IMG/VR virus record: IMGVR_UViG_3300021962_000044
Location: 47,076-111,075 of that record
Length of the DNA: 64,000 nucleotides
Source: a virus
Reading direction: 5' to 3' (one strand)
The position numbers and the translations under genes are program-made. This document shows positions 9,962 to 49,998 of the stretch, piece by piece; position 1 is the first letter of the stretch; each line of letters starts with the position of its first letter. The notes below the pieces were generated by a model that was not told where the DNA came from, did not search any database, and worked only from the letters and a program-made list of their open reading frames with translations.

Positions 9962-12238
9962 GTGAATAATTCACCCGAAATCGAAGCAATTATCGAGGAA
10001 GCAATTGGATTTGCTAAACAGCGTAAACATCAATATTGTACTATTGAACATTTGTTATTAGCATTGATAACACACACACCATTTAAGAAATGTTTGGATA
10101 GTTTCGGAAGTGATACCGAAACAATGATTCAAGAGGTTACTGCATACGTTGATAGTCTACATGCTATTGTTGCAAAGGTAGAACCTGAAATTGAAATTCA
10201 ACCACGAAAAACTAATAGTTTAGAACGGGTAATGAATCGTTCAGTAACACAGGTACTATTTACCGGTCGTAGACAAGTTACAACTATTGATTTATACTTA
10301 AGTATATCTAGCGAGGGAAATAGTCATGCACATTATTTCTTATTAAAATATGGTATAAGTAAAAATGATTTTGTACCACATTGGCAACAAACTTACAAAG
10401 GGGCTGAATTCACAGCTAAACTTTCAGAAAATCAAGCTGATGAAATATTGGAAGAATATACAACTAATTTATCCGATCTAGCACGATCAGGTAAATTAGA
10501 GCCACTCATTGGACGTAGTAAAGAACTTGATGATATTGTAAATGTTCTTGCTAAACGTTTTAAAAGTAATGTATTAATGGTGGGTGATCCGGGTGTGGGT
10601 AAAACTGCAATTGCTGAAGGTCTCGCACAAATGATTTCACTAGGTGATTGCCCGGAGTTTATTCTTAACCATGAAGTATATTCACTTGAAGTGGGAGCAT
10701 TACTTGCAGGATCTAAATATCGTGGTGACTTTGAAGAAAAGGTCAAACAAGTACTAGAAGCACTAAACACTAAGAAAAAATCAATTTTATTTATTGACGA
10801 AGCACATACTATGAAGGGCAGTGGTTCAGCTAGCAATGGGTCAATTGACTTTGCTAACATGATTAAGCCTGCAATTACTAAAGGTACATTAAAAGTTATT
10901 GCAAGCACAACTTGGGAAGAATATTACGAATCATTTGAAAAGGATCGTGCATTAATGCGTAGATTCTATCGTGTATCAATAGATGAACCATCACTTGACA
11001 GCACTATTCGTATTCTTAAAGGATTAAGCACACGATTAAATGACTTCCATGAAGTTGATATCAGTGAGGAAGCAGTAACGGCAGCAGTAGAAGCGTCAGC
11101 TAGATATATTCATGACCGCAAGAACCCAGACAAAAGTATTGATTTACTTGATGCGGCTTGCGCTAAACAACGTGTTGCAGGGAATAAGGGAGCAATCATT
11201 ACTAAAGATTTGATCCACGAACAAGTTGAAAAATTCACAGGTGTTCCTGCTGATAAACTTAATGGTGATAACTTTGACCGTATCAATAGCCTTGAAGTTA
11301 ATATCAAAGGTAAATTGTATGGACAGGATGAAACCGTTGAACAAGTATTAGAACGTGTATATGTATCATTTGCTGGAATAGGTAATGAACATAAACCTAC
11401 AGCAAGTTTTATCTTCTTAGGCCCAACTGGCACAGGCAAAACAGAATTAGCCAAGTTGTTAAGTAAAAATCTTGACATGACATTACTCAAGTATGATATG
11501 AGTGAATATAGTGAAAAACACTCAGTATCAAGTTTGATTGGTCCGCCCCCTGGCTATGTTGGCTTTGGAGATAGCCAAGTAGGTGGAGGACGATTAATCA
11601 ATGACTTAAGCAAGAACCCACACAGCATTCTGTTGTTTGACGAAGTAGAGAAAGCTCACCCTGATATCTTTAACATCTTCTTACAAATGTTAGATGAAGG
11701 ACGTATTACTGGAAGCAATGGTAAAGAAGTTAACTGTAAGAATACTATTATTATTATGACAAGTAACTTGGGCAGTAGTGATAGTGAGAAAAACAATATT
11801 GGATTTGGTAATCAGGAAAAAGTAGGTGAAGATGACAAAGCAATTAAAGAATTCTTTAAACCAGAATTTAGAAATCGTGTTGATTTGATTTGTAAGTTTG
11901 GTAAACTTGATACATTAGCTATTAAGAAAATTGTTGTTAAGTTTACAGAAGAATTAAAAAAATCTCTAATAGAGAAACATAACATTAGTTTGAATTTGAG
12001 TGAGCCGGTTGTGGATTATTTAGCTGATAAAGGTTATGACAAAAAGATGGGCGCCCGTCCACTAGGTCGTAAAATTGATGAATTGATTCGTGTACCATTG
12101 AGTAAGAAAGTATTGTTTGAACGTATTAAAAATGCTATGGTAACATGTATTCTAGTAGATGATAAAATTGAATTTAATGTAGTACAGAAATCAATAGCGA
12201 AAGTAGGATCAGATGGCATTATTGAAATCAGTAACTGA
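9962..12238 (+). CDS. clpA: ATP-dependent Clp protease ATP-binding subunit ClpA
   Basis: Clp N-domain (TIEHLLLAL), two AAA+ modules (GDPGVGKT and GPTGTGKT), KYRGDFE pore loop, IGF ClpP-docking loop, GARPL; no ClpB middle domain. Confidence 0.93.
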   Translation: MNNSPEIEAIIEEAIGFAKQRKHQYCTIEHLLLALITHTPFKKCLDSFGSDTETMIQEVTAYVDSLHAIVAKVEPEIEIQPRKTNSLERVMNRSVTQVLFTGRRQVTTIDLYLSISSEGNSHAHYFLLKYGISKNDFVPHWQQTYKGAEFTAKLSENQADEILEEYTTNLSDLARSGKLEPLIGRSKELDDIVNVLAKRFKSNVLMVGDPGVGKTAIAEGLAQMISLGDCPEFILNHEVYSLEVGALLAGSKYRGDFEEKVKQVLEALNTKKKSILFIDEAHTMKGSGSASNGSIDFANMIKPAITKGTLKVIASTTWEEYYESFEKDRALMRRFYRVSIDEPSLDSTIRILKGLSTRLNDFHEVDISEEAVTAAVEASARYIHDRKNPDKSIDLLDAACAKQRVAGNKGAIITKDLIHEQVEKFTGVPADKLNGDNFDRINSLEVNIKGKLYGQDETVEQVLERVYVSFAGIGNEHKPTASFIFLGPTGTGKTELAKLLSKNLDMTLLKYDMSEYSEKHSVSSLIGPPPGYVGFGDSQVGGGRLINDLSKNPHSILLFDEVEKAHPDIFNIFLQMLDEGRITGSNGKEVNCKNTIIIMTSNLGSSDSEKNNIGFGNQEKVGEDDKAIKEFFKPEFRNRVDLICKFGKLDTLAIKKIVVKFTEELKKSLIEKHNISLNLSEPVVDYLADKGYDKKMGARPLGRKIDELIRVPLSKKVLFERIKNAMVTCILVDDKIEFNVVQKSIAKVGSDGIIEISN

Positions 12239-13935: not shown

Positions 13936-15825
13936 ATGAGAAATATTGTCATTATGCCGGGAGGCTTTCATCCCTTTCATGCAGGTCATGCCGCATTATA
14001 TCAAAGTGCAGTAAAAGCATTTAATGATGCTGACGTATATGTAGCCGCAACAAATGACACAAAAACAAGACCTTTTCCTTTTTCTGTTAAAGAGAAGTTA
14101 GCAAAGCTTGCAGGTGTTGCAGATAAACACTTTGTACAAGTTAAAAGTCCCTTTCAACCAAAAGAAATAACCGATCACTATAATCCGGAAGAAGATGTAT
14201 TAATCTTTGTTCGTAGTGAAAAAGATAGAAATGAAAGTCCTAAGCCGGGTGGTACAAAGAAAGATGGTACTCCAGCATATTTTCAACCCTGGACAGGTAA
14301 GAATCTACAACCATTTGGTAAACAAGCATATATTGCTTATCTACCTACAGTAGAGTTTGGTCCAGGAATTAGTAGTGCAACAGAGATACGTAATGCATGG
14401 CCTAACTTAGATGACCGTCGTAAAACAGCAATGGTTATGAGTTTGTACCCGGTAACTCAAAAGAATCCTAAGCTTGCCGCTAATGTTGTTAAGATGTTAG
14501 ATATGGGTATGGGTAATGAGTTAGATGAGGGTATGGGTAAAGCATTGGGTACAGCCGCGTTAGCAGGTAGCCTAGCATTAGGTGGTTTATCTAGTATGGG
14601 TAAAACAGCAGTTACTAACTGGGATAAATTACCACAACAAATGAGTACTCAACAAGATAGTAAAGGTGGTGAAAAGATTATGTCTGTAACTGGTCCTAAC
14701 AATAAAGGTGAGTATCGTGTTAGAGTTACTACAGATAATGATGTACAAGAGTTTGTTACTAAAACTCCACCAAAGGCATTAAATGAATTTGCCCCACCGA
14801 GTAGTGACCGAGGTGACGGCGGAGATAGTAGAAGTCGTAGAATAAGAAAACTATTAGAAATTGCTATACAAGTAGCAAAAGAAAAAAATATCGATGAATT
14901 GGGTATGATTCATGGTATGAATATGATAGCAGGTGATGAATTTTTCAATACAGCAGTTGAAGGTATACTACCAGACATAACAGATAAAGAATATATGTTT
15001 GTGCTACAGAGTGCTTATAAAACAGTAAAGCAAGGTTTGGCAGAAGCAAAGAAAAAAAGAAAAAAGAAAAGTAAAAACCGTAGTCTTGGAAGATACTTCT
15101 TCCCGGGATATAGTTACTATGGCGGCGGTGGAGAATCTGGTGAGGGTGGAGGAGATGGTGGAAGTGAAGGTATGGCGGAAGGCTTCCCTCAACCAGGACC
15201 AAGTTCAGGTGCTCCAAAACAGTTCGGTGCTGATGCCCAAATACAAACTCGCCAAATGACGGTAAAAGATATTATATCATCTATACCCGGTGTGCCTTAC
15301 TATAACAATGTAGTCGATGATTGGGACGCTAAAGATTATAGTTGGGGCGTTACTAAAAAAGTTATAGAGTATGCTACTTACTTGAAGGATCATCCAGAAA
15401 GTTTAGCAAAGTTGCCACCGGCAATAGTATTAAACGGTAAGTTTGAAGATGGCGCCCATAGAGTATCTGCCATATGGTTGCTACAACAAAGAATGGATCC
15501 TAAAAATCCATTGTGGAAAAATGTTAAATTAAATGTTCAATTTGTTAAGCAAGGTATGACGGAAGGCGAAGAAATTACTGAAGGACCTTTTGTTCAACGT
15601 CTTGGACGTCCTAATAAAGTTAATATCTATGTGAGACATACTACAGGCAAACCCTCTTTGCTTATTGCAACTGATATTCCTTATTCAATATATGATAAGT
15701 TTATTGCAAAGGCTATGCAAAAATATCCACAATTTAGGCAAACAGACTTTTCATTTAAATCTGCTGATAAACTTAAGGAAGAAACTAAATTGTCCGAAAG
15801 TGCTGATTACTTAGACGAAAATTAA
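13936..15825 (+). CDS. Modular polyprotein: HxGH cytidylyltransferase-like domain + ParB/Srx-like module + unknown modules
   Basis: PGGFHPFHAGH and ISSATEIR; LPPAIVLNGKFEDGAHR (ParB-N); module joints ELDE|G, ALNE|F, GLAE|A, GMAE|G, GMTE|G. Confidence 0.7.
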   Translation: MRNIVIMPGGFHPFHAGHAALYQSAVKAFNDADVYVAATNDTKTRPFPFSVKEKLAKLAGVADKHFVQVKSPFQPKEITDHYNPEEDVLIFVRSEKDRNESPKPGGTKKDGTPAYFQPWTGKNLQPFGKQAYIAYLPTVEFGPGISSATEIRNAWPNLDDRRKTAMVMSLYPVTQKNPKLAANVVKMLDMGMGNELDEGMGKALGTAALAGSLALGGLSSMGKTAVTNWDKLPQQMSTQQDSKGGEKIMSVTGPNNKGEYRVRVTTDNDVQEFVTKTPPKALNEFAPPSSDRGDGGDSRSRRIRKLLEIAIQVAKEKNIDELGMIHGMNMIAGDEFFNTAVEGILPDITDKEYMFVLQSAYKTVKQGLAEAKKKRKKKSKNRSLGRYFFPGYSYYGGGGESGEGGGDGGSEGMAEGFPQPGPSSGAPKQFGADAQIQTRQMTVKDIISSIPGVPYYNNVVDDWDAKDYSWGVTKKVIEYATYLKDHPESLAKLPPAIVLNGKFEDGAHRVSAIWLLQQRMDPKNPLWKNVKLNVQFVKQGMTEGEEITEGPFVQRLGRPNKVNIYVRHTTGKPSLLIATDIPYSIYDKFIAKAMQKYPQFRQTDFSFKSADKLKEETKLSESADYLDEN

Positions 15826-15882
15826 AAATATTTTGACCCCCTTGTTTTGATGTAAATATTACTATCTTAACAAGAGGATCAA

Positions 15883-16872
15883 ATGGCAACTAAGAAAACA
15901 ATCGAAAAGGTTACTGCTAAACCAGCAAAAGCCGCAACTAAAACTCCAGCAAAAGCACCGGTTAAAGCACCCGCTAAAGCTTCTAAAACAGCTAAAACAG
16001 TTCCTGTAGAAAAACTACAAGAAATTGCTGATCAGGCTGCTAAAGAACCAGCTCAGGCAGCGGGCCCGGGTCAAGTTCAAGTTAACGTAGATTTTCTACG
16101 TACAACTAAAGTACATATTGCTATGCCATGTTATGGTGGTATGCTAACAGAATCAACATTCATGTCATTCATCAAGTGGGCAAATACAGCTCGTCAACTT
16201 GGTATTGATTGGACATTAGAAACAATGGTTAATGAATCACTCATTAGCCGAGCAAGAAATACATTAACTGCTAAGTTTTTGGATATGCCAGACGCAACAC
16301 ATTTATTCTTTGTTGATGCTGACATTGGTTGGGAGCCATGGCATCTACTAGTTCTACTGAACCGTGACGTTGATGTTATCGGTGGACTATATCCAATGAA
16401 GACAATGCCAATTAAATGGGTTGTTAATGGATTTGAAGGTGCTGAAGAAGGTACTGATGGATTACAAGAAGTATCTAAAGCAGGTACAGGTTTCTTGTTG
16501 ATGAAGAAACATGTGTTTGAAAAGATGAAGACTCATCCTGCAGTTAAACAGTATAAGAACGACATTGGATTAGATCCAAAGTTTGACCAGCACTTAAAAA
16601 CGTATTTTGATACAGCGGTTCGTCAGAATCGTTACTATAGTGAAGATTGGACATTCTGTGAAAACTGGCGTGATATGGGCGGCCGCATCTGGGTTGACAA
16701 ACGTGTATTGTTACGTCACTCAGGTAGTTATGTATTCTGTATGGAAAATCAGGAACATTTGATGAAAACGATCGGCCCTATGTATGTTGAAGAACAGGCT
16801 AAAAAGGCACAACCGGCAGCTCCGGCAGTTCTCCCGGATGCAACTGGTGTAGTATCAATAGCTACAACTTAA
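15883..16872 (+). CDS. GT-A-fold glycosyltransferase-like protein with Ala/Lys/Pro-rich N-terminus
   Basis: SLISRARN, HLFFVDADIGW (DxD), AGTGFLL, SEDWTFC, L.HSG. Confidence 0.7.
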   Translation: MATKKTIEKVTAKPAKAATKTPAKAPVKAPAKASKTAKTVPVEKLQEIADQAAKEPAQAAGPGQVQVNVDFLRTTKVHIAMPCYGGMLTESTFMSFIKWANTARQLGIDWTLETMVNESLISRARNTLTAKFLDMPDATHLFFVDADIGWEPWHLLVLLNRDVDVIGGLYPMKTMPIKWVVNGFEGAEEGTDGLQEVSKAGTGFLLMKKHVFEKMKTHPAVKQYKNDIGLDPKFDQHLKTYFDTAVRQNRYYSEDWTFCENWRDMGGRIWVDKRVLLRHSGSYVFCMENQEHLMKTIGPMYVEEQAKKAQPAAPAVLPDATGVVSIATT

Positions 16873-16875
16873 TAC

Positions 16876-16900
16876 AAAGCCCCGAAAGGGGCTTTTATCT
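16876..16900 (+). terminator. Rho-independent terminator
   Basis: AAAGCCCC-GAAA-GGGGCTTT plus T-rich tail. Confidence 0.85.
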
Positions 16901-16917
16901 TTTTAGATAAATACTCT

Positions 16918-18612
16918 ATGGACTTAAAAGAATTACATTCATTCAAAATGTCAGATGCTGTGACATTTCACGATAGCCTCAATCCTAAACTGTTTCGTGG
17001 ACAACATCTACAACCTGAAGTAGAATTACAATTAAAAACCATAGCACAAGACTTTTTACAAGAGATAGGTATACACGACTTAGATGTACGTGATATCACT
17101 ATTTCTGGAAGTAATGCCGCCTATAGTTACACAGACCATAGTGATTTAGATTTACATATTTTAGTCAATATGAAGGATTTACCGGATGATGACATTTACC
17201 ATGAATTCTTCAAAGCTAAAAAAGATTTATACAATGACTCACATGATATTACTATCAACGGGATTCCAGTAGAATTATACATACAAGATGCGGCAGAACC
17301 TGTAACTAGTTTAGGTGAATATAGTGTTAAAGATAATAAATGGTTGCGAATGCCCGCAAAGCGTAGAGCAAACTTTGACCAAACAGCTACTAAGTCAAAA
17401 TATATAAAACTATTAGATATTATTGATACAACATTACAATCTGATAAAATAAGTAAAGTTAATAAAGTATTGAAAAAGATTAAACAATATCGTCAAGCTG
17501 GATTAGATAAAGGTGGTGAGTTTAGCCCTGAAAATCTAGCATATAAAGCATTACGTAGCCGTGGTTACATTACAAAGTTATATGACTTAAGAGACAGATT
17601 ACATAGTAAGCATTTGAGTTTAAATAACATGTATGCTAATGTAGATGAAGATTATGATCCAAATGGTATTCCTCCTGGACCAGAATTTAAGCCAACCATG
17701 CCAGCCGGTACTGTTAAAGTAGATGTAAGTGATACATATGATTGGTATAAGTTGGGACAACATATCAGTAATCTTGATGGATTGGGTAAACATGACTTTG
17801 GGCAAGGTCCTCCAAGTACTATAATGGCATTTGGTAGTGAAGAGGCAGAACATAAGTATATTGATGCACTAAAGAAAACTGGTCTTACCACAACTGATAT
17901 TGATCCGTTAGATCCTAATCAACCTAAAGGTATGAAGCGTCAAAAGACTGACCCTACATATAATGTAAATGAAGCTGTTACTGATAATTATCTATATCAC
18001 GCTACTATGCCTGCAGGCATGATGCGTATATTGCGTACAGGTATAATTAAAGCAACTGATAGACCGCAACCATCTACTAAATCAAAAACACAATACCCTA
18101 CAATTAGTACAACTAGATCAAAACAATATGCAGAATCAAACGATTTTGTAGATTTCTTAAACTTAACCAACGACGGTAATGCAGTCATATTAGTATTTGA
18201 TCGTGCCGCAGTCGCTAATCATTACAAAATGTTTAGTACAAGTCAAGGTACACAGACAGTAGGTGACGAATATGAAGAAGTAATTGTTGCCCCCAAAGGA
18301 GCAATGCCGATCAAAGGAACCTTAAAGGGCTTCTATTTCAACCCTAGAAGCACAGAAGAAATAGAAGGATATAAAGATATACCTTGGTTCAACGAGTTAT
18401 TGACCAGTCCATATTATATAGGACCAAAACAAGGTGTGGCGGAAGCATCAGGTTATATCCCTAGTGAAAAACAGAAGAATGACCCAAGATTTAGTACAGC
18501 ATTAACAGTAGATATTAAGCCCGACAGTATCAAAAAGAACGCAAAAGCATTCTATTGGAATACTAGTAGAGCAGGTATTCCTCCAACAGCAAAGCCATCA
18601 GGCAAAATCTAA
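16918..18612 (+). CDS. Modular polyprotein: Pol-beta-family nucleotidyltransferase + ADP-ribosyltransferase-like module
   Basis: GSNAAYSYTDHSDLDLH and VELYIQD (NTase); YLYHAT...ISTTRS...EYEEVI (ART-fold pattern); joints NVDE|D, NVNE|A, GVAE|A. Confidence 0.7.
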   Translation: MDLKELHSFKMSDAVTFHDSLNPKLFRGQHLQPEVELQLKTIAQDFLQEIGIHDLDVRDITISGSNAAYSYTDHSDLDLHILVNMKDLPDDDIYHEFFKAKKDLYNDSHDITINGIPVELYIQDAAEPVTSLGEYSVKDNKWLRMPAKRRANFDQTATKSKYIKLLDIIDTTLQSDKISKVNKVLKKIKQYRQAGLDKGGEFSPENLAYKALRSRGYITKLYDLRDRLHSKHLSLNNMYANVDEDYDPNGIPPGPEFKPTMPAGTVKVDVSDTYDWYKLGQHISNLDGLGKHDFGQGPPSTIMAFGSEEAEHKYIDALKKTGLTTTDIDPLDPNQPKGMKRQKTDPTYNVNEAVTDNYLYHATMPAGMMRILRTGIIKATDRPQPSTKSKTQYPTISTTRSKQYAESNDFVDFLNLTNDGNAVILVFDRAAVANHYKMFSTSQGTQTVGDEYEEVIVAPKGAMPIKGTLKGFYFNPRSTEEIEGYKDIPWFNELLTSPYYIGPKQGVAEASGYIPSEKQKNDPRFSTALTVDIKPDSIKKNAKAFYWNTSRAGIPPTAKPSGKI

Positions 18613-18667
18613 TAAGTTTCCATATTATGGTATTTTGATAAATACACTATTAGTATGGAAATCCGTT

Positions 18668-19951
18668 ATGAAAATCAAACAAATCACTGAAACTACAACA
18701 GCAGGTGCAATAGCTACTGTAAATTCACCATTAGGTGGCACACAAAGTAGAGGAAATCCTAGCATATATGGTGGCAAGAAAGTAGGAACTCTATTCAAGG
18801 GTAAAAAGACTAAAGCCCCATATGCTAATAGCATCAATGAAAGTGCTGAACTTAGTGAAGCACATTTAGAAGAAGATGATGTTATTGTTGTTCCAGGACA
18901 GGGTCGTAGTCGTAAAAACGGATTTGTTCCACATGGCCAAAGTCGTGTAGACCACGAAGTTGAAATGGCACGTAGTGATTTATTCAGTGCCGCAAAGAAT
19001 GCTCAACAAGTCTTTTCAATGATTAAAGATGTTAGTGAAGATGAAGGTCTTGACGGTTGGGTACAAGAAAAGATTATTAAAGCCAATGATTATCTAAACA
19101 CTATACGTGAATACCTAGAAGGTAAGCAAGTTCAAGGTGTAACGGAAAACAATCAAAGAGTTGATTCACTTGTCACAGACTCATTAAAAATAATGCGTGG
19201 TCCAGAAGTAAATGATGCAGTCAAAGCAATAAAGACTGTGCTAGGAGAAAGAGAATACAATAGCCGTCGCGGTTATTATAGTTTCTATGTTCGACAACTA
19301 ATGGATATGCATGGTCAAGAAGGTTTAACGGAAGGCTTACACCCAATGATTATTGATGATGTTAAAAAATTAGCAACGTTGAGTCCTACTGACAGATATA
19401 GTGCTTATTCTAATATTCGTGGTTACTTCAAGGCCGACCCAGCGTTGAGCAAGATGGCGTCAGATTTAATGGGAGGATACTACGAAGCAGACATGCTTAG
19501 AGGCAAGTATAAAACAGCCGAAGCAAAAGCCAAGTATGCTGAATTAGAACCAATGCATCAGGCATTTATTAAACAATCACTAGGTCAAGAGCAAGGTGTA
19601 ACGGAAGGCTCCAGAAACGCATATTTGAAGCACAACAATTTAATTGATTTAGAAAAACCACTTGCCGGATTAAAGGACGAGTTTAATAAGTTTTTGCGAA
19701 CCCACGATCCTGAAGAAAAACAAAAATTCCAACAAGGTATCAAACAAAGAATAAAGACACGCCCAATGGCGGGACCTAAAGGCGTATTACCAGAGCAAGG
19801 TATATCAGAAGGCGCTAAAGTTGACCGTATGGTTAAGCACATTGAAAAGTCAGAAGAAAAATCTGGCAAGAGTAAAAAAGAAGCTGAAAACATTGCTTGG
19901 GCAACTGCTAACAAACGTGGCATGTTAAATAACAAGAATAAGAAAGCGTAA
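18668..19951 (+). CDS. Modular polyprotein (putative internal head protein) with C-terminal ChaB-like motif
   Basis: Start MKIKQITE at 18668 after ATAAATA (18638); joints QGVTE, EGLTE, QGVTE, QGISE; C-terminal AENIAWATANK. Confidence 0.65.
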   Translation: MKIKQITETTTAGAIATVNSPLGGTQSRGNPSIYGGKKVGTLFKGKKTKAPYANSINESAELSEAHLEEDDVIVVPGQGRSRKNGFVPHGQSRVDHEVEMARSDLFSAAKNAQQVFSMIKDVSEDEGLDGWVQEKIIKANDYLNTIREYLEGKQVQGVTENNQRVDSLVTDSLKIMRGPEVNDAVKAIKTVLGEREYNSRRGYYSFYVRQLMDMHGQEGLTEGLHPMIIDDVKKLATLSPTDRYSAYSNIRGYFKADPALSKMASDLMGGYYEADMLRGKYKTAEAKAKYAELEPMHQAFIKQSLGQEQGVTEGSRNAYLKHNNLIDLEKPLAGLKDEFNKFLRTHDPEEKQKFQQGIKQRIKTRPMAGPKGVLPEQGISEGAKVDRMVKHIEKSEEKSGKSKKEAENIAWATANKRGMLNNKNKKA

Positions 19952-19952
19952 T

Positions 19953-22900
19953 ATGAGCAATATTCTTAAAGGTATAATAAACGAAGTTAGTCCACATAAC
20001 TATGATAGTGATTGGGATTATCAAGATGCAGTAGCACGTAGTGGTAAATCACGTTCTAGCTATCGTTCACAAGAAGATGATACTTTTGACTCTGATGTTG
20101 CATATTCCAGAAAGATGTATCAATTGGGACAACAACAAAAGGCTGCAAAAGAAAAAGCACAACGTGATAGTGACCATGATAGATTGGCAAGTGGTACAAA
20201 TGAAGATATAACTGAAGCCTCTAATCCTTATGAACCAGTAATGATTCAAGGTTATGATAAGTGGCTTAAGTTAGTTAGTATTCCTAATGTTGATAGACAT
20301 GCTTATAAAAGTGATATAACAGCAGTTACTTCCTTAGGTGATGTGATTGGTGAATTTAATACAGATAAAGATTTAGGATACGTTATTAAAAAATATGCTA
20401 AAGGTGTTAGTGAGAGTTTAGATGATCCATGGGGAGATCAAGGTAACTTTGCAGGTGATAAGCCAGTTAATCTTGGTGGTGTCTCTATTAAGAATATACA
20501 AGTGGGTGATACTGTTAAGTATTTTGGACAACCTTCAAAAGTAGTTGCTATGAGTAAGGATCGTAAATATTCTCGCATCACAATTTCTAAAGGCATGGGT
20601 ACTGTTACACAAGATGTATTAACACGTGACTTACAACAATTAGGCCAGGGCAAAGCAATAGAAGAAAATGATAATATTCAAACTAGAATGCGAATGGATG
20701 ATTATTATAAATTGGCAGATGCTATTCAGGAAAAACTTAGACAAGCAATTAAACTAGGTGATAACGAACTTGTACATAAATTATCCAAAGAACGTGCTGA
20801 CTTAGATGCACGTGTTAAAAAATATGGATTGATACCAGAATCACAACTAGATGAAATCTCTAATGAAAAGTTAGCACAATACAAAACAGCTGCCGCATTA
20901 GATGCAGGCAAAGCTGATAAAGAAGGTGATTATAAACGTGGCGATAAACGTTTCAGTGGTATTGTTAAAGCAACTAAGAAACAGTTTGCTAATGATACAA
21001 AGAAATCTGGTATCAGTCAAGGTATAAATGAATTTGCCCCCATTAAACCCCCTACTGCCGGGGCATTTGGTGGTAATAAAGATTACGGACAACCAAATAG
21101 TTCACGCTATATAGGTGGTAACAAGTTTGTAGTAGGTACTACTAACAATTATGTATTGACCGCTACAATAGACAAATGGGGATTAGAATGGGATGAGGAT
21201 GACGAGATATGGTTCTTAGACAGTCCCGGTGCCGCACATATTGCTGATGCTAGTGAAGGTGAAATAGAACTACCTCCACCCCGTGAACAAAGAAATCAAA
21301 TACATGATTTAGTAACTGATTATCTTAATGAAAGAAATTCTGCTGATTTACAAAAGGTAGCCGCATATTATGGTCACAGTAATGATGGCGAAATGGCAAC
21401 AAATGAAAGTTCAGAAGCACCTAGATTTAACAGTAAACAAGAAGTTATTAATCACTTTGTTAAAAACGGCAAAAGTGCGGCAGCAGGTGCAGCGGCATGG
21501 GAACGTGGTTATAGAGGTTCATCTAAGAAACCAATAGAGTTAAAAAAACCACCACAAAGAAGTTACCATGATGAACTAGATGATAAACGTTATTCAAATA
21601 CATTTGAAAACTTAGGTGATCAATTGAAATCTAATTCATTAAACGCACTAGTTCAAGCCAAATTAGCTATAGAGCAACAACGTCAAGCTGAAATAGAAGC
21701 TTGGAAAAGAGATTTTGAAAAGAATACAGTACAAAAAGCACAACAAGGTTTACGTAGAGAATTTGAACCAACTCCAGTTGCACAGCCTGGCGAGAAGCAT
21801 TCTGTATTGAAAGCTAGGTTAGCACAATTAAATAATGCTATACAGAAGCAAGAACTAGTAGATAAGTTAGTTGATAGATTAGAGCGTAAGGGTTTAATGA
21901 CTCCTGCAATGCAAAACGATACTGATACAAGAATGCATGTTAAGTATGGTGCAAAAGATAACTATCAATCTTTAAATAAAAAATTAGACAATGCTATTCA
22001 AATGTTACAGAATAGATTAAATATCCGTAAAATTTCTGGATTAAAAGAAGGTCATGATGAGCGTGATGAATATGATAATCCTAGAATGGGTAGAGATTAC
22101 GGCAAAGGCAATCTATTTGTAGATCCTGGTTCAAATGAATTTAAAAAAGAAGTACATATAGGTAGCAATGACGGCGAACGTGGCAGACCAAAAAATCTAA
22201 AGGGTGTTTCAAAAGTATTACCAGCTGATGCATTTGGCCGTACTACAGGTAAGATACCAGATAGTGCAAGACCAACATCAAAAGAAGATCCTTTTAAAGA
22301 CGTTGATGAAGACCTAGACGAAAATCTACATAAGTGGTTTCAAGAAAAGTGGGTACGATTTGGACCTGATGGTAAGATCCGTGGTGATTGCGCTAGAGGT
22401 GATGATAGTGAAGGTAAACCAAAATGCTTACCACAAAGTAAAGCACAGAATTTAGGCAAAGCAGGTCGTGCTAGTGCGGCAAGTCGTAAGCGTAGAGAAG
22501 ATCCTAATCCAGAACGCAGTGGTAAGGCTATCAATGTTGCTACTAAGAAAAAGAGTAACGAAGGTGTGGCGGAAGACCAACTTGATGAATTAAGTTGCTG
22601 GTCTGGTTATCATAGAGTCGCTGGCACCAAAGCAGGCTTTCCAGGTAGTTGTGCTAAAAATAAAACAAACGAAGAAGCAGTTGATGAAGCTGATATGAAC
22701 CGTAGAGGATTCTTAAAAGGTATGGGTGCGGCGGCTGTGGCAGGTAGCGCATTAGTTAATCCTATTGTTGCTAAAGCGCAAGATTCAACATCTGCTAGAG
22801 GAATAACAAAATCTGATTTACAAAAAAAATTCCCTAATAGTTTAGATATTAAAGCGACAGGAACAAGACCACCCTCTATTATAACGGATTTAGGTTTATC

Positions 22901-24290
22901 ATCCGGTAAAAATTTAGAATTGGAAGTAAAGACTACCGATTTATTGGGTAATGCATCGTTAGGATATATTGAATTTATAAATGATATAATGGTTGGTCAA
23001 TTTTATATCACTGATAAATCAAACTTACCAAAAATTTCAGCGTTTACTAAAAAGCCAGAAATTATTGAGTATTTTAAAAATATAGCCACACGAATATTAG
23101 GCACGGGTAAATTAGGTTCTGTTCAAGGAAAAATCTCACTAGACAAAGTAAATACGGATCAGGGAGTGGGAGCCGGAGTGATGAAAGGACTCTTTGAAAT
23201 TAGTTATGATACAATTAATATTAATGTAGAAACATCAAATGGATCAATTAACCTATTAGTCGGTGCCTATGAAAGTGGAAACTACTTTGTTATAAGTTTA
23301 ATAACTGCAATAAAAAAACAACAAAATAATTTAACACTTGACGAATTCAACAAAAAAGTTGTGGCGGAAGAACAACATAGTTGCCCACATTGCGGTGGCG
23401 AGATGGTTAGTGAAGAACTAATGAATGAAAAGAAAGATGCTTGCTACTATAAAGTAAAGAGTCGTTATAAAGTATGGCCAAGTGCTTATGCATCTGGTGC
23501 GTTAGTTAAGTGTCGTAAGAGTGGTGCTGATAGTTGGGGAAACAGCGGTAAGAAAAACGAAAGCATTGAAGAAGGCTGGCAAGATGAAGCACAAGAGTTA
23601 GAGGACTGGTCAAAAGAAGTCAATAAGAAATTGTATAGAGCGCATGAAACTCAGCGTCCTGGACTAGCAAGACAACTAAGCAAACTAGAACAAAAACATT
23701 TTGGTAGTAGTCTAAATCAAGGATCACTTACAGAAATAGTTAAGGCAGCATTGATGGCATTACAAAAAGGTCAAATGGTTCACTATGATCCACAACAAGT
23801 AGGTCAAATGCCATTTGGTAACATAGTAGGCGATGAAGCTAAACTTATTGCAAAATATAATATAACCCGTGACGAACTTGCTGGTTACCGTATGTTACAC
23901 GATAAAAATATGGTAGATAATCTTGAACAATTTTTAAAGTTACGCCGTTTGGTACGTGCAAAGTCATGGCCTCTAGAGTATTATGAAGAACTAGAGAAGT
24001 TAACACCGGAAGAAGCATGGTTAAAAATGGCCGATGATTTGAATTGGTCCAAAGATGACATGAATGAAGAAATTCAATCTAAAACAGATGATAAGTTATT
24101 AGCATACTACGCACAGCGTAAGGCTGAAAAACAAAAACAACAAAGTCAACCACAAGACCAACTTGATGAAAAGTGGACTAAGAAATACAAAGATAGCATC
24201 AACTGTAGTAATCCAAAAGGATTTAGTCAAAAAGCACATTGTGCCGGTAAACAGAAAAATGAAAGTGCTATTATGAAAGGTCTTAAATAA
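19953..24290 (+). CDS. 1445-aa modular polyprotein (putative internal head protein) with internal Tat signal and small basic Cys modules
   Basis: More than 15 [LIVM]-x-E or xNE joints; MNRRGFLKG internal motif; basic modules NLHKWFQEKW..KPKC, DACYYKVK..WPSAYASG and KWTKKYKDSINC..KGFSQKAHC. Confidence 0.7.
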   Translation: MSNILKGIINEVSPHNYDSDWDYQDAVARSGKSRSSYRSQEDDTFDSDVAYSRKMYQLGQQQKAAKEKAQRDSDHDRLASGTNEDITEASNPYEPVMIQGYDKWLKLVSIPNVDRHAYKSDITAVTSLGDVIGEFNTDKDLGYVIKKYAKGVSESLDDPWGDQGNFAGDKPVNLGGVSIKNIQVGDTVKYFGQPSKVVAMSKDRKYSRITISKGMGTVTQDVLTRDLQQLGQGKAIEENDNIQTRMRMDDYYKLADAIQEKLRQAIKLGDNELVHKLSKERADLDARVKKYGLIPESQLDEISNEKLAQYKTAAALDAGKADKEGDYKRGDKRFSGIVKATKKQFANDTKKSGISQGINEFAPIKPPTAGAFGGNKDYGQPNSSRYIGGNKFVVGTTNNYVLTATIDKWGLEWDEDDEIWFLDSPGAAHIADASEGEIELPPPREQRNQIHDLVTDYLNERNSADLQKVAAYYGHSNDGEMATNESSEAPRFNSKQEVINHFVKNGKSAAAGAAAWERGYRGSSKKPIELKKPPQRSYHDELDDKRYSNTFENLGDQLKSNSLNALVQAKLAIEQQRQAEIEAWKRDFEKNTVQKAQQGLRREFEPTPVAQPGEKHSVLKARLAQLNNAIQKQELVDKLVDRLERKGLMTPAMQNDTDTRMHVKYGAKDNYQSLNKKLDNAIQMLQNRLNIRKISGLKEGHDERDEYDNPRMGRDYGKGNLFVDPGSNEFKKEVHIGSNDGERGRPKNLKGVSKVLPADAFGRTTGKIPDSARPTSKEDPFKDVDEDLDENLHKWFQEKWVRFGPDGKIRGDCARGDDSEGKPKCLPQSKAQNLGKAGRASAASRKRREDPNPERSGKAINVATKKKSNEGVAEDQLDELSCWSGYHRVAGTKAGFPGSCAKNKTNEEAVDEADMNRRGFLKGMGAAAVAGSALVNPIVAKAQDSTSARGITKSDLQKKFPNSLDIKATGTRPPSIITDLGLSSGKNLELEVKTTDLLGNASLGYIEFINDIMVGQFYITDKSNLPKISAFTKKPEIIEYFKNIATRILGTGKLGSVQGKISLDKVNTDQGVGAGVMKGLFEISYDTININVETSNGSINLLVGAYESGNYFVISLITAIKKQQNNLTLDEFNKKVVAEEQHSCPHCGGEMVSEELMNEKKDACYYKVKSRYKVWPSAYASGALVKCRKSGADSWGNSGKKNESIEEGWQDEAQELEDWSKEVNKKLYRAHETQRPGLARQLSKLEQKHFGSSLNQGSLTEIVKAALMALQKGQMVHYDPQQVGQMPFGNIVGDEAKLIAKYNITRDELAGYRMLHDKNMVDNLEQFLKLRRLVRAKSWPLEYYEELEKLTPEEAWLKMADDLNWSKDDMNEEIQSKTDDKLLAYYAQRKAEKQKQQSQPQDQLDEKWTKKYKDSINCSNPKGFSQKAHCAGKQKNESAIMKGLK

Positions 24291-24336: not shown

Positions 24337-24936
24337 CTAATCAAAAATTATTCTCCAACCCTTATAAGAGGTCTCGTTTTTTCGGATGAGACCTCTTAAT
24401 CCTTTAGTACTAATAGAGTATTTTATAGCAAATTCATATGAGGTACTGTATACTCTTTCTAGAGTATTGATGTTCTCAAAGCAATAGACTGTTTTATTAA
24501 ATCTAGTATTATTAGTTCCGGCTTTGGATCGTTTTGTGAATTTTGAAGCATATTCATTTGATATTAATCTGCCGCGCACCCAACCTTCTGGAATATCTCC
24601 ACGAATTTTCTTATTAATAATACCATTGTTAATCCAAATAGTGCCATACATTGGATTATTCTCACCGGTATTCGATAATTTTGCGAGATAAGATTTTTCT
24701 TCAGGAGAGACTTTCATTCTCTGAGACATGATTAAACATGCTTTGTAATCCCCTTGTGATTTATGTATTTCGTAATGTTCTTTGATGGAAACACATAGTA
24801 AATTTGATATTTCATTATTATTGTGATTTCCATCAATATGATGAATTTCATAACTGCGACCATCTTCATCTTTAGGAATGGGCCCTATAAATGTTTCGTA
24901 AATCTTACGATGATCCGTGGTTGAATAAATACTCAT
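24337..24936 (-). mobile_element. Free-standing HNH homing endonuclease with NUMOD-type DNA-binding motifs
   Basis: YEIHHIDGNHNNNEISNL..VS..EH..IH; GENNPMYG and WINNG. Inserted antisense in a late operon. Start at 24936 has an AAGGAG SD. Confidence 0.88.
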
Positions 24937-25036
24937 GCTGGTGCTCCTTTTTAGCATTAGAGTAGTTGGGCCTGCCAGCCGCGAACTACACTTTTATTTA
25001 TCATAAGTTTAGATAAATATATGAATAAGGATTAAT

Positions 25037-25477
25037 ATGTTAGTAGAAAACTTAAAAGTGTTATTGGCTAGTACTCAAGTGTTTGCGATTAAAACGCAAC
25101 AATTCCATTGGTGCGTAGAGGGGACCAACTTCCCGCAATATCACGAATTCTTTAATACGTTATATGGAGATGTGAGTGCTACTATTGATCCTATTGCTGA
25201 ATATATTAGAATACTAGGTCATTACACTCCGGGTAGTTTAACACGTTATGCAGAACTAAGTATCATTCAAGACCAAATTAAAATTCCACGTGCTGAGTTA
25301 ATGTTTGCAGAATCATTGCAAGATTGTGAAGCAATGGGTCAACTTGTTGTTGCTATGTTTGATCAGGCAGCTAGTGAGAATCAGCATGGTATCGAAAACT
25401 ATATGGCTGAACTACAAGATTTGTATGGCAAGAAAGCATGGTTTATCCGTTCAACATTAAAAAGAGAACGTGAGTGA
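25037..25477 (+). CDS. dps: Dps/ferritin-like DNA-protection protein
   Basis: KTQQFHWCVEG.NF..YHEFF..LY, D.IAEYIR.LG and K.AWF. Confidence 0.88.
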   Translation: MLVENLKVLLASTQVFAIKTQQFHWCVEGTNFPQYHEFFNTLYGDVSATIDPIAEYIRILGHYTPGSLTRYAELSIIQDQIKIPRAELMFAESLQDCEAMGQLVVAMFDQAASENQHGIENYMAELQDLYGKKAWFIRSTLKRERE

Positions 25478-28461: not shown

Positions 28462-29397
28462 ATGTCAATAACAATAACAGGTGGAATAACAATATCCGGC
28501 GGAGGATGGACTCTAGAGGCACCCCCGGCTGGTAATAAGGCTATATTTGGATACGGAGCTGCTGTAGACAATGTCTACGTCAACGTGACCAATCTAGTGT
28601 CAAATACAGGTGTAGTTGCTACTGATACTGCTGGTGTAGGTACTGCTAGAAGTGGTCTTGCAGCCGCCGGCTATGGCGGTGATAAAGCTATATTTGGATA
28701 CGGAGCAACATCAGTTTTTGCTGATAGTAGTGTGTCAATGACAAACAAAGTATCAAATACAGGTGTGGTTGCGAGTGATACCACAGGTGTTGGTACTATT
28801 AGGAGATATCTTGCAGCCGCAGGTTATGGTGGTGATAAGGCTATATTTGGATATGGATATAATGGATCAACTAATGTATCAATAACCAACCTAGTATCAA
28901 ATACTGGTGTAGTTGCTACTGATACTGCAGGTGTTGGTACTGCTAGGTCTAATTTAGCAGCCGCAGGATATGGTAGTGATAAAGCTATATTTGGATATGG
29001 AAGTGGTCCAGTTTCAATAACCAACCTAGTATCAAATACTGGTGTAGTTGCTAATGATACTACAGGTGTCGGTACTGCTAGAACTCAACTTGCAGCCGCA
29101 GGATATGGCGGTGATAAAGCTATATTTGGATATGGATCCGCTAGTGGTTATGTATCAATAACCAATCTAGTATCAAACACTGGTGTAGTTGGTAATGATG
29201 TTACAGGCGTCGGTACTGCTAGAGGATCACCTGCAGCCGCAACATATGGTACTGATAAAGCTATATTTGGATATGGTTACACCAGTGTCACATGGACCGC
29301 AATAACCAACCTAGTATCAAACACAGGTGTAGTTGCTAGTGATACTGCTGGTGTTGGTACTGCTAGATATGGATTGGCAGCCGCAGCCTACGGTTAA
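28462..29397 (+). CDS. Six-repeat (Kelch-like beta-propeller) protein, probably virion-associated
   Basis: Six 45-51 aa units KAIFGYG-variable-TNLVSNTGVVAxDTxGVGTARxxLAAAGYG. Confidence 0.7.
   Translation: MSITITGGITISGGGWTLEAPPAGNKAIFGYGAAVDNVYVNVTNLVSNTGVVATDTAGVGTARSGLAAAGYGGDKAIFGYGATSVFADSSVSMTNKVSNTGVVASDTTGVGTIRRYLAAAGYGGDKAIFGYGYNGSTNVSITNLVSNTGVVATDTAGVGTARSNLAAAGYGSDKAIFGYGSGPVSITNLVSNTGVVANDTTGVGTARTQLAAAGYGGDKAIFGYGSASGYVSITNLVSNTGVVGNDVTGVGTARGSPAAATYGTDKAIFGYGYTSVTWTAITNLVSNTGVVASDTAGVGTARYGLAAAAYG
28533..29394 (+). repeat. Coding tandem repeat, 6 units of 135-153 bp
   Basis: gctatatttggata at 28540, 28687, 28840, 28984, 29119 and 29260. Confidence 0.9.
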
Positions 29398-44701: not shown

Positions 44702-45528
44702 AAAAGATTTTAATTACTGGTTGTTCAGGATACATAGGTTCACATCTATCTAAGATGTTAGCTAATGATTATGAAGTTTATGGTTTAGATATTGATGAAC
44801 CACAGGCACCACTTAATGAGTTTTATCGCTGTGATATCAATAGACAATTTGCTATCCCAGGTGATATAGAATATGATTGTGTAATTCATTTAGCGGCATT
44901 AGTACGTGTGGGTGAGAGTGAACAAATACCTATCAAGTACTATATCACTAACTTAAATGGTACAATGAATGTAGTTAATAAAATAAAGACAAAGAACTTT
45001 ATCTTTGCTAGTACAGGCGCCGCACAAGATTGTTCTAGTGCTTATGGTATCAGCAAGCGAGCCGCTGAAGATGTAGTTAGAGAATATTGTACAAAACATA
45101 AACAACAAGATTATACTATCTTTAGATTCTATAACGTTATCGGAAGTGATGGTTATGAACCAACCAACCCTGATGGTTTAATGTACAAACTAATGGAAGC
45201 ACGTGATACAGGCGTATTTACTATATATGGTAATGATTATGATGTATCACCTGACGGTACTTGTGTACGTGACTATGTTCATGTTAATGAAATATGTGAT
45301 GCAATAAAACAAGCTATTGAGAAGCCTAGTAATAGTGTTGAATGTCTAGGACATGGTGTAGGATATACGGTACAAGATATTGTTGATTTATTTCAAAAAG
45401 TAAATAATTGTGACTTTACAGTAAAATACGGCACTAGAAGAAAGGGTGATTTACCTAGTAGTGTACTAGCCAATGTGTCACCTTATATGCGTAATCTTTA
45501 CTCTATGGAAGAGTTATTGAAAGTTTAA
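44698..45528 (+). CDS. NAD-dependent NDP-sugar epimerase (GalE-like)
   Basis: ITGCSGYIGSH, HLAA, YGISK (YxxxK), RFYNV.G, DGTCVRDYVHV, RRKGD. Confidence 0.9.
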   Translation: MKKILITGCSGYIGSHLSKMLANDYEVYGLDIDEPQAPLNEFYRCDINRQFAIPGDIEYDCVIHLAALVRVGESEQIPIKYYITNLNGTMNVVNKIKTKNFIFASTGAAQDCSSAYGISKRAAEDVVREYCTKHKQQDYTIFRFYNVIGSDGYEPTNPDGLMYKLMEARDTGVFTIYGNDYDVSPDGTCVRDYVHVNEICDAIKQAIEKPSNSVECLGHGVGYTVQDIVDLFQKVNNCDFTVKYGTRRKGDLPSSVLANVSPYMRNLYSMEELLKV

Positions 45529-47051
45529 GCTAAATGTGTCATTAAGGTATTCATTTGTTGAACACCACCTTTTGATAACTGAAATCCTTTTTGGTCTGCA
45601 CGTTTGATTCGTTGGTCATAACTAGGATGTGAGCTATTGGGAAGTTTAGTTATACTATTATAAAAGTCGTAATCAGATTGTTTTTGGTGCAAGAACTTAA
45701 ACATCTCAACTTTGTTGTAACCTAAAGCCCTACATAACTTAATAGCAAAGTCGTCAGCATCCATTTCTTCCCGACGTGCTTTCCCGGGATCAGGCTGAAA
45801 ACCGTGTCCTAGGGCAATGTGTCCCAGTTCATGTGCAATAGCAAATGCCAGTGTAGAATCAGGAGCATCCCAAAACACAGTTAGGTCAAGACTGACATTA
45901 CGAGTATCAGCATTTCCTTGAACCCACTGGTCATTCGACGTAACAAGAACTTTTGTCCCCTGCAGTCTTTGTGCCCATTCTGGTCCGGCGGCTCGCATTA
46001 ACTTACCCAGCATACCATTACTGCGTTGTTGCAGTTGTTCAAATCTAGGCATCCAAACGTCAGGTTGTTTTTTTATAGTTTCTAAATCTTGATATTCACC
46101 TGCTTTAGCTAAACCAGTAGCACCTAATGCGGCAGCACCTGCTGCACCTTTAAGCAGGTCTCTACGACTAATAGCTTCAGCTAATTCATTGTTCGTTTTT
46201 ACAATAGGTGGAACCCAGTTGTATAGTTCTCTTGGACCGCCGGATTCATTGTGGTAATAATTTGCTTTAAACGGACCATCAAATTTAATAACGTTTTGAA
46301 CTTCTTTTGGATTACCACCTGTTAATCTCTTAAATGCATCTATTGCTTTTTCTTTTGTCAAACCAGCCTTATTAAACTCACCGGTATCACCAATAGGCAA
46401 GATTAAGCCATCAGGTGTAGCACTCCATAATGTATATCCATCTGGATTGTCTCTCCTTGCTACGATTTGAACTTCATTTGGCTTATAGTAATGTTTACTA
46501 TTCAATGGTGGTTTAGCTAACTTACGTGAGAACGTTCCCTTATTAGTAGGATCATCTTTCATAGCAGTTAATTCTAAGCCACTATCACTAATCAATTTTA
46601 ATAGACCTTCTGGAACTTTATTCATTAACTCTTTGCGTATCTGAATGCCCACAACATATGGTTTCTTAACAGGGATCCCTATACCTCTCGGATGATAGAT
46701 ACGTTCTTCTGTTTCTTGTTTATACATTGGGTTACTAGCTGTTGGACCCGTACCATCAGGTTGATTATAGAATTGCATATAAGAGAATGGCATTACTTTG
46801 AATCCAGCTTGACGTAATGCATTTCTATCTAGTACAAGTTGAATACTGCCGCCGCCATACGGGAATCTATAATATTGATTTCTACTTGCGCTGATTACTG
46901 GTATCTCCCAACCACCTTCTTCATCTGTATCAGATAAGTGTGGTTGTATCACACCTTTTCTGAGTATGTTCCAGATTTGATTAGGTTGTGATACACTATG
47001 ATAAACATAGTCTCCGCCTACGGCTTCTGATAAAAATTCACTTGCTCTCAT
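45525..47051 (-). CDS. Modular polyprotein: ART-like module + Tat signal + M48 metallopeptidase
   Basis: Leader MRASEFLSE|A; YVYHS...ISASR...ETEERI; LAE|AISRRDLLKG..AKA|G; AIAHELGH, EMDAD, SHPS...RI. Confidence 0.75.
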   Translation of the reverse strand: MRASEFLSEAVGGDYVYHSVSQPNQIWNILRKGVIQPHLSDTDEEGGWEIPVISASRNQYYRFPYGGGSIQLVLDRNALRQAGFKVMPFSYMQFYNQPDGTGPTASNPMYKQETEERIYHPRGIGIPVKKPYVVGIQIRKELMNKVPEGLLKLISDSGLELTAMKDDPTNKGTFSRKLAKPPLNSKHYYKPNEVQIVARRDNPDGYTLWSATPDGLILPIGDTGEFNKAGLTKEKAIDAFKRLTGGNPKEVQNVIKFDGPFKANYYHNESGGPRELYNWVPPIVKTNNELAEAISRRDLLKGAAGAAALGATGLAKAGEYQDLETIKKQPDVWMPRFEQLQQRSNGMLGKLMRAAGPEWAQRLQGTKVLVTSNDQWVQGNADTRNVSLDLTVFWDAPDSTLAFAIAHELGHIALGHGFQPDPGKARREEMDADDFAIKLCRALGYNKVEMFKFLHQKQSDYDFYNSITKLPNSSHPSYDQRIKRADQKGFQLSKGGVQQMNTLMTHLA

Positions 47052-48940: not shown

Positions 48941-49998
48941 AGTATTTCTTTTCTAGCCTTTGCTACCATTTGTTCGGCAAGCATTAGTAATTCTTCCATT
49001 TGCTCAATAGATTCGCAGTTCCATCTACGCAAACTTTTGTTAATGTTACTATTTGGATCTCTTGCTGTCTTGGCACTTGTTCTGCTTTTCTTCATGCCCT
49101 TCATTCTAGCACAGAATGATTTACGGCGTTTAGCAGCCTTACTGCCTTTTTTAAGTTTGCTAGGTTTAGTAGTAACCGCTGTTTGAATCTTGCTACCAGG
49201 ATGACTACGGCGATAACTCTTTACAGACTTTTTACTCATTCCACCTACACGTTTGTTATTGTGTTTTGACCAATTCTCGCCTTCCGCTACACTTTCATCT
49301 AACTCATTCCCAGCGAACTCAATAGCATCATAAGGTCCCCAAGGCTTACCAGTACGGCCATCAATGTCATTTCCAGCATCATCATTGTCACCGTATTCAT
49401 AGTGTTCTTTACTTTGAATTTCTACTCCATCAAACTCAGCATTATATCCGATAAAGTATTTTCTAACTTTGCCGTCAGGACAATGAATACCGCGTTCTAG
49501 CATATTTTCAATAGCGTCTTGAACTTTCATTCTATGTTCTAATGGATTTTTTCCTTGTTTGACCAGGTCCCCCAACATCTCCCATTCCATATTGTACCAT
49601 GCTCTAGCCAATGTTTTTAAATAGTTGCTATCACCCTCGCCACCAGTACTAGGTGCAAGTTCATTTAATGATTCGTTTTGTTGACCTAATGGAATATTAG
49701 CAATATCGTTTACAGTAATATTAACTAAATTAGTTGTACCATTTGCTAGACGGGCAAAGTGCCCCTGATTGTGTAAATTCATCATTGCATAATAAAGATA
49801 GTTTGGGTCAATAACATCTGTACGTACAACTTTAACACCAATCCTTGAAGGATCAAATTCTTTAACAGGCTTGCCCACTGTTTTATCACTACCCTTACGT
49901 ACTAACCAAAAGTCAGCGTCTGGCATATTAGTAGCAATTTTTGCTAGGTCTTTCAGTCTGGTACTGACATTCTCTGATATAATTTCGGTAAATCTCAT
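48937..49998 (-). CDS. Modular polyprotein: HsdS-TRD-like module + unknown module + basic C-terminal module
   Basis: Leader MRFTEIISE|N; joints SLNE|L and LDESVAE|G; C-terminal RRKSFCARM...DPNS.INKSLRRWNC. Confidence 0.65.
   Translation of the reverse strand: MRFTEIISENVSTRLKDLAKIATNMPDADFWLVRKGSDKTVGKPVKEFDPSRIGVKVVRTDVIDPNYLYYAMMNLHNQGHFARLANGTTNLVNITVNDIANIPLGQQNESLNELAPSTGGEGDSNYLKTLARAWYNMEWEMLGDLVKQGKNPLEHRMKVQDAIENMLERGIHCPDGKVRKYFIGYNAEFDGVEIQSKEHYEYGDNDDAGNDIDGRTGKPWGPYDAIEFAGNELDESVAEGENWSKHNNKRVGGMSKKSVKSYRRSHPGSKIQTAVTTKPSKLKKGSKAAKRRKSFCARMKGMKKSRTSAKTARDPNSNINKSLRRWNCESIEQMEELLMLAEQMVAKARKEIL

Follow-up and report, generated by a model that had tools for sequence, protein, structure and literature searches.

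A cluster of polyprotein genes in a giant phage carries a recurrent six-codon joint, CAAGGTGTGGCGGAAGGC, which is conserved as DNA, coincides with the breakpoints between protein modules and has been the site of recent joint-to-joint swaps. The genes lie in a 64,000-nucleotide stretch of viral DNA, hereafter the window, comprising bases 47076–111075 of the 111,075-bp IMG/VR virus record IMGVR_UViG_3300021962_000044. Our preferred explanation, to which we assign a probability of about 0.6, is that the joint is a protease-cleavable linker, identical by descent among its copies, that provides a portable short homology for general recombination. The record (GC content ~35%, CheckV completeness ~32%) derives from an uncultured giant T4-type phage, of which it is a fragment; among its giant-phage genes are those for a ClpA/B-like AAA+ protein and a family-B DNA polymerase.

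The joints were compared across 77 related loci, which were chosen by protein similarity to the 1445-aa open reading frame (ORF) of the window and blind to DNA. The records include three complete relatives of 348,701, 352,012 and 524,565 bp. The relatives are metagenome assemblies throughout and many of the loci are near-duplicates; removal of contexts more than 80% alike left 126 joint contexts. The polyprotein genes and joints of the window are listed below, where L numbers denote related loci and HSP a blastn high-scoring segment pair.

13936–15825, plus strand: polyprotein gene 1, 629 aa, with an N-terminal cytidylyltransferase-like nucleotidyltransferase followed by unrelated modules; three joints
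15031–15048, plus strand: joint Q-G-L-A-E-A, in part decayed, with GCA for Ala; the blastn matches to L014, L018 and L008 stop at 15054–15057
15166–15183, plus strand: joint E-G-M-A-E-G (GCG, GGC); homology with L017 stops at 15182
15550–15567, plus strand: joint Q-G-M-T-E-G (ACG, GGC); homology with L008 begins at 15544
16918–18612, plus strand: polyprotein gene, 564 aa, with an N-terminal phrog_36119 domain; one joint
18430–18447, plus strand: joint Q-G-V-A-E-A, whose DNA is the full consensus; on 18423–18445 two HSPs of L008 overlap
18668–19951, plus strand: polyprotein gene, 427 aa from the ATG at 18668 (the frame opens with TTG at 18635), with an 8-residue I-T-E leader; four joints
19133–19150, plus strand: joint Q-G-V-T-E-N (GTA ACG), decayed; homology stops at 19140–19147 in L017, L012, L008 and L026
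19319–19336, plus strand: joint E-G-L-T-E-G; homology stops at 19335–19336 in L014, L018 and L008
19592–19609, plus strand: joint Q-G-V-T-E-G; homology with L018 begins at 19590
19796–19813, plus strand: joint Q-G-I-S-E-G, most decayed; swap point against the 99.6%-identical L007, which has a Tat-signal module there
19953–24290, plus strand: polyprotein gene, 1445 aa, starting with an I-N-E leader of 11 residues; contains joints, further boundaries of the L/V/I-x-E type and a Tat signal in mid-protein
20200–20217, plus strand: decayed joint E-D-I-T-E-A (2 mismatches), still a module boundary; homology stops at 20205–20210 in five relatives
20400–20417, plus strand: fully decayed joint K-G-V-S-E-S, still a module boundary; homology begins at 20411–20423 in six relatives
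22560–22577, plus strand: joint E-G-V-A-E-D, with the core of the consensus; left border of the cassette in which L007 differs; 44 HSP ends fall in the 15-nt bin of this joint
23355–23372, plus strand: joint K-V-V-A-E-E, in which GTG GCG is retained; right border of the cassette in which L007 differs
48110–48127, minus strand: decayed joint K-Q-G-V-N-E-A, in a 629-aa polyprotein (47051–48940)
48937–49998, minus strand: polyprotein gene, 353 aa; I-S-E leader of 9 residues and, at the C terminus, a DUF6321 module
49279–49296, minus strand: joint E-S-V-A-E-G (GCG, GGC), in frame and on the sense strand

An earlier reading of this DNA, made from the sequence only, had described the joint as a 15-base pattern, aaggtNtRRcggaag, with examples at 15166, 15550, 18430, 19133, 19319, 19592, 22560, 23358 and, on the minus strand, 49279–49296. 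These coordinates are right, each example being in frame and on the sense strand, as are the spacings of 186, 273 and 204 nt between the joints of the 18668 ORF, all of which are multiples of 3. The pattern has six exact matches against 0.00 expected, and 13 with two mismatches or fewer against 0.75 expected. Throughout, the matches lie in frame on the sense strand and encode [Q/E]-G-[V/L/M/I]-[A/T]-E-[G/A/E/D/N]. The 126 non-redundant contexts give CAAGGTGTGGCGGAAGGC as their consensus, with no information in the flanks.

Codon choice within the joint is unlike that of the genome as a whole. Across the 111-kb record, GCG accounts for 5.9% of the Ala codons and ACG for 4.2% of those for Thr, the shares of GGC among Gly codons and of GTG among Val codons being 13.7% and 8.7%, whereas 9 of 11 window joints use NCG (binomial P ~4e-10), an excess that the sequence-only reading had suspected and that recurs in the relatives. 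Ala/Thr-Glu dipeptides written NCG-GAR occur only 12 times in the whole record, with the joints supplying nine, and the Gly codon that follows the joint Glu is GGC in all six window joints that have one. Over the 77 loci, motif codons are GCG for 121 of 156 Ala, GTG for 101 of 129 Val and GGC for 59 of 86 following Gly, against backgrounds of ~8%, 11% and 18%, respectively. The peptide Q-G-V-A-E, in 62 non-redundant contexts, is written with GTG in 57, GCG in 58 and GGT in 60 (background frequencies 0.13 for GTG and 0.10 for GCG). Control motifs of the same proteins (QLDE, [LIV]DE, CPHCGG and NES) show ordinary synonymous variation. Where the joint Val codon does vary, it is GTA in 25 cases and GTT in one, although the background uses both equally often; variants thus lie one transition from the consensus, which indicates that the joint copies are related by DNA descent and not by peptide convergence. 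Given this conservation at silent sites, the peptide alone cannot explain the joint. Readings of it as a Chi-like site, a restriction site, a frameshift signal or an internal start were rejected, because conservation covers the whole 15–18 nt with no 5–8 nt core; on inspection there is also no palindrome, slippery heptamer or fixed downstream start codon. In the complete relatives, the 15-mer is restricted to polyprotein clusters.

The joints are also where homology between related loci breaks. Among 337 distinct joint contexts, we classified the pairs that share one homologous flank: at the joint, 168 were homologous on the left only, 160 on the right only and 24 on both sides (93% discordant, 328 of 354), compared with 6–20% discordance at control points at a distance of 26 or 40 codons on either side. 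More than one right partner was found for 39 left-flank families (up to 9 different partners), and more than one left partner for 42 right-flank families (up to 11). This discordance is symmetrical at the joint (105 left-only and 104 right-only), whereas [L/I/V]-D-E sites are discordant mainly on the left and so belong to the module on their right. When positions 13936–24290 were aligned by blastn to the 77 loci, 20% of internal HSP ends fell inside the ten 18-nt joints, roughly ten-fold above the 1.7% expected. Module order is permuted in L014, L026 and others. The proposal that modules come and go and are exchanged at a joint conserved as DNA is therefore borne out in the relatives; neither a fixed module order, nor breakpoints unrelated to the motif, nor background use of NCG, each of which had been named as counting against it, was observed.

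Indels and replacements bounded by repeats are seen between near-identical phages, in four pairs. Relative to the 99.6%-identical L007, one swap in the window starts within the 19796 joint, and the whole stretch bounded by the 22560 joint and the one at 23355 (to 23372) is replaced. L071 and L077 (99.3–99.9% identical) differ by a cassette with consensus joints at both ends. Between L046 and L055 the difference is a cassette indel of 383 nt that has a joint at one of its ends, and between L070 and L076 it is an indel of 167 nt lying between two direct repeats of the G-V-D-E type (overlap of 19 nt). In addition, L008 has a ~580-nt cassette inserted at the 18430 joint, with a copy of the joint on each side. 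We looked for the joint as a mobile 18-bp insertion, that is, for the same flanks without it, and found no convincing case in the first 40 of 295 ungapped spanning hits; these 40 were one-flank matches extended by chance. A recent transfer of cassettes between the 352-kb and 524-kb relatives was considered and gave no signal (cassettes 70–89% identical, backbone ~75–80%). Separately, L007 carries a 123-nt in-frame deletion at window positions 19365–19488 (plus strand), away from the joints and with microhomology of at most 1–2 nt, which shows that ordinary indels shape the polyprotein genes too.

The silent conservation might instead reflect a nucleic-acid function apart from recombination, such as a Shine-Dalgarno-like pause (AGGTG, GGAAGG) that separates the folding of modules, or a site for an RNA- or DNA-binding factor, with breakpoints merely selected to keep modules whole. 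The 15-mer core of the joint occurs on at least 119 IMG/VR contigs and, among the matches listed, 115 of 116 fall within open frames at least 79 codons long and read x-G-V-A-E-x, with flanks that all differ; this tie to strand and frame is as such a function would have it, as are the persistence of the same 15-mer at ~33–50% GC and the presence of breakpoints at protease-type sites that lack the DNA consensus. A rare-codon pause, however, would not keep the same codons at both 33% and 50% GC, and descent from one sequence, to which the single-transition variants point, is not what convergence on a function would leave. Nor is there a sign of structure. The 18-mer alone folds at −0.1 kcal/mol and is not palindromic, and 58-nt windows centred on joints average −7.18 kcal/mol, compared with −7.27 (sd 3.06) when windows are drawn at random from the same ORFs.

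The manner in which joints decay also speaks against a function of this kind. In the ten (non-independent) pairs where both flanks are homologous, third-position identity within the joint is 30/40, against ~0.82 at flanking silent positions, so that joints drift at least as fast as nearby silent sites when co-inherited with both flanks. They also erode under AT pressure, decay rising as the GC content of the locus falls (rho −0.50, P 2e-4, the loci being non-independent). The window is among the more decayed loci, with a mean of 1.6 mismatches per 15-mer, and this strong decay accounts for the ‘TRR’ degeneracy of the earlier pattern, which is mostly G-to-A decay from the TGG consensus of the relatives. 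In-place selection on the silent sites of the joint therefore seems unlikely, and we infer that the consensus is kept by turnover, through copying, conversion and an advantage of the majority sequence, in place of purifying selection. On balance, we consider a separate nucleic-acid function unlikely, though with so small a sample of pairs it is still a serious rival.

The sequence-only reading had further likened the array to an integron acting inside ORFs. While module swapping at the joint stands, as described above, the integron-like part does not: neither a tyrosine recombinase (PF00589, a profile matched by 14 of 14 control genomes) nor a serine recombinase (PF00239) was found in the 111-kb record or the three complete relatives, the joint has no hairpin, and breakpoints also occur at non-consensus [L/I/V]-x-E sites. 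A RecA-family recombinase (RecA/UvsX-type) is present in all three complete relatives. In T4, genome rearrangement through microhomologies of 6–10 bp arises within a few rounds of laboratory evolution (PMC9391042), so the 15–18 identical bases of a joint should be ample. General short-homology recombination is thus a sufficient and economical explanation, and an integron-like site-specific system is not supported.

A free-standing HNH endonuclease gene, a candidate source of a dedicated enzyme, lies directly downstream of the 1445-aa gene.

24337–24957, minus strand: free-standing HNH_3 endonuclease gene (Pfam HNH_3, E=2.7e-11)

Homologues of this gene are patchy in the relatives and occupy the same position beside two polyprotein clusters (L052 and L054) of the 524-kb relative, a distribution that is homing-endonuclease-like behaviour. 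That an enzyme, either integron-like or a homing-type nuclease such as HNH_3, recognises the 15–18 bp joint and catalyses or triggers cassette exchange would agree with this placement, with a conserved length in the range of homing-endonuclease targets and with insertions that can have duplicated joints at both sides. Yet one complete relative (G002) has perfect joints and no HNH homologue by tblastn, HNH-bearing genomes keep perfect joints too, and the crossover points of recent recombinant pairs are spread over the joint and not fixed. With neither a tyrosine or serine recombinase in the record or the three complete relatives nor an attC-like fold of the joint, we regard such recognition as most unlikely. 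Similarly, it is highly unlikely that a dedicated phage activity, whether the neighbouring HNH protein or an unrecognised enzyme, deliberately breaks or pairs DNA at the joints in a programmed in-frame domain shuffling that would diversify injected proteins. A role of HNH_3 as a local stimulator of recombination, with a putative action on the joint, is possible.

As the relatives are metagenome assemblies with many near-duplicate loci, the pattern could in principle come from chimeric assembly over a short repeat, or from counting near-identical contigs that are not independent. We find this barely credible. The word lengths usual in assemblers exceed 18 bp, the codon bias persists in non-redundant contexts (<80% identity) and across phages with backbones only ~75% identical, and the frame is open across every junction.

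Several features suggest that the joints are also sites of proteolysis. The joints and the other homology breakpoints all lie at [L/I/V/M]-x-E, placing hydrophobic-x-Glu at module boundaries, and five ORFs start with leaders of 8–12 residues ending in I/L/F-x-E, which we take to resemble the capsid-targeting leader of T4. A Peptidase_S77 protein, of the T4 gp21 prohead protease family, is encoded in all three complete relatives (above the curated cut-off, E 1e-27 to 1e-28), and proteases of the gp21 group cut after Glu (PMC5694885). Three Tat signals (Pfam TAT_signal) occur in mid-protein, each starting two residues after a V/L-x-E site.

22686–22750, plus strand: Tat signal at residue 914 of the 1445-aa ORF
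~48550–48620, minus strand: Tat signal at residue 110 of a minus-strand ORF
~46110–46175, minus strand: Tat signal at residue 294 of a second minus-strand ORF

In relatives, the Tat module comes directly after a consensus joint. An internal Tat signal is useful only when cut, which supports cutting at the x-E site. Cutting before the Tat signals would expose an export signal on injected cargo. Taken together, the polyproteins are probably cut by such a protease and may be packaged in the capsid.

We propose that the cluster encodes polyproteins of small, unrelated modules chained together, several of them behind short T4-style leaders. The hydrophobic-x-Glu sites between modules would fit the cutting rule of gp21-type proteases, and one class of these sites would be the portable six-codon joint. 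All copies of the joint would come from one ancestral DNA sequence that travels with every insertion, deletion or exchange of a module. As the only sequence common to otherwise unrelated modules, it would offer short in-frame homology to the general recombination or replication machinery, candidate routes being RecA/UvsX-type exchange, single-strand annealing and template switching. Each product of recombination would then be an intact and still cleavable polyprotein. Fresh copies of the joint would come with each exchange, majority-type joints would recombine more readily, and resident joints would erode by G-to-A changes, as most appear to have done in the present AT-rich genome.

Some observations weigh against this explanation. 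The remaining hot spots for HSP ends are L-D-E, V-D-E and I-E-E sites without a DNA consensus, and breakpoints at such sites imply that selection for intact modules alone yields part of the pattern. For the events separating the window from L007, the consensus joint is absent from one partner at two of three boundaries. Recently recombined pairs differ by 0.9–1.3 mismatches per joint 15-mer, a modest gain over the 2.0 of random joint pairs, and the test of purifying selection comes down to about ten related comparisons. The polyprotein cluster is not adjacent to head genes, and no Peptidase_S77 gene was found in the record itself (~32% complete), an absence that we attribute to the record being a fragment.

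Few of the modules can be recognised. The nucleotidyltransferase of polyprotein gene 1 (residues 6–93) matches Pfam CTP_transf_like at E=7.8e-6, and the same gene has an L-D-E breakpoint near 14521; the minus-strand ORFs contain Peptidase_M48, GP88 and DUF6321 domains, and most modules match no family. The joints at 15166 and 15550 bracket a 128-aa module and, as had been remarked, are near-identical copies (16 of 18 positions). The ParB-like identity suggested for this module (15181–15564) could not be confirmed, there being no match in Pfam (E up to 1), PHROGs or PDB sequences. A single-sequence AlphaFold2 model of the 427-aa ORF was too weak to be used (mean predicted local distance difference test score 46); its sole confident segment, at residues ~226–308, is bracketed by joints at 222 and 313, and three of the four joints lie in predicted coil. 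Megablast with the polyprotein region gave no match among GenBank phages, and a protein search recovered single modules only, at residues ~1114–1241 of the 1445-aa protein, which are small free genes in T4-like cyanophages. The small Cys-rich module at window 23370–23570 (plus strand; C-P-H-C-G-G ... S-A-Y-A-S-G; phrog_727, with a weak DUF5872 match) stands alone as a small gene in T4-like cyanophages, in hundreds of their genomes. The present polyproteins chain together modules that elsewhere are genes in their own right.

Three neighbouring features of the window were noted on the plus strand. Just upstream of the cluster, 9962–12238 encodes a ClpA/B-like double-AAA+ homologue of an ‘ATP-dependent protease’ (phrog_4871, E 1.6e-231), and a ferritin-like gene adjoins the cluster at 25037–25477 (Pfam Ferritin, E 1.8e-15). 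A tandem array at 28596–29366 consists of 5.4 copies of a 144-nt (48-codon) unit at ~78–80% identity, and lies inside a 311-aa ORF (28462–29397) without a family match.

Several known systems share features with these genes. T4 IPI-III and Alt and the ejection proteins of giant phages (PMC5694885, PMC7697877) likewise have hydrophobic-x-Glu leaders and are cut after Glu, as would suit the gp21-type protease of the complete relatives. Those of T4 are single cargoes behind one leader, whereas the present ORFs chain many unrelated modules with repeated sites, one class of which is fixed as DNA, and would be cut and packaged by analogy. Polyvalent proteins, which the present polyproteins may resemble, join many effector-like domains in one polypeptide, believed to enter together with the DNA and then to be split into separate units, and cassette-like variability has been raised for some of their loci (PMC5512222). 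They differ in their built-in metallopeptidase or HINT processing and in that no DNA-fixed joint has been described for them; most of the present modules, moreover, belong to no known family. The plus-strand cluster has no built-in processing peptidase of the MPTase, zincin or HINT types, and an M48-like domain lies in the ORF at 45525–47051.

Recombination at short repeats has been proposed as the driver of PeSL shuffling (PMC2839356), in which short conserved repeats flank variable units and bound the differences between near-identical phages. PeSLs are intergenic promoter and terminator stem-loops that are regulatory and move whole genes; the present joint is 18 bp, coding, in frame and unstructured, and moves domains inside ORFs. 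Conserved motifs within an ORF also separate segments interchanged between phages in the gp38 adhesins of T-even tail-fibre genes, where they are glycine-rich (PMC3157838). In gp38, these motifs make up the structural core of a single domain within a single gene family, whereas the joint links independent, unrelated modules in several genes. In the T-even tail fibre, the His boxes of gp37 bound swapping in the same way. Integron attC/IntI arrays resemble the polyprotein genes in having a recurring site between unrelated cassettes, but for the present arrays neither an integrase nor a folded attC-like site was found, and their cassettes are in-frame protein segments and not promoterless genes. 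A literature search found no paper describing a DNA-fixed in-frame joint of this kind.

Models of phage mosaicism built on ‘linkers’, of the type put forward by Botstein, can point to few clean molecular examples, and to hardly any within reading frames. In the present case, a single 18-bp coding element marks where protein modules are exchanged, in well over a hundred giant-phage contigs. If short-homology recombination at the joint is confirmed, it would allow combinatorial evolution of injected effector repertoires without breaking frames or cleavage sites, and would give a simple rule for dividing uncharacterised polyproteins into candidate effector units. If true, this would also point to a naturally evolved design rule for loading T4-type capsids with modular cargo.

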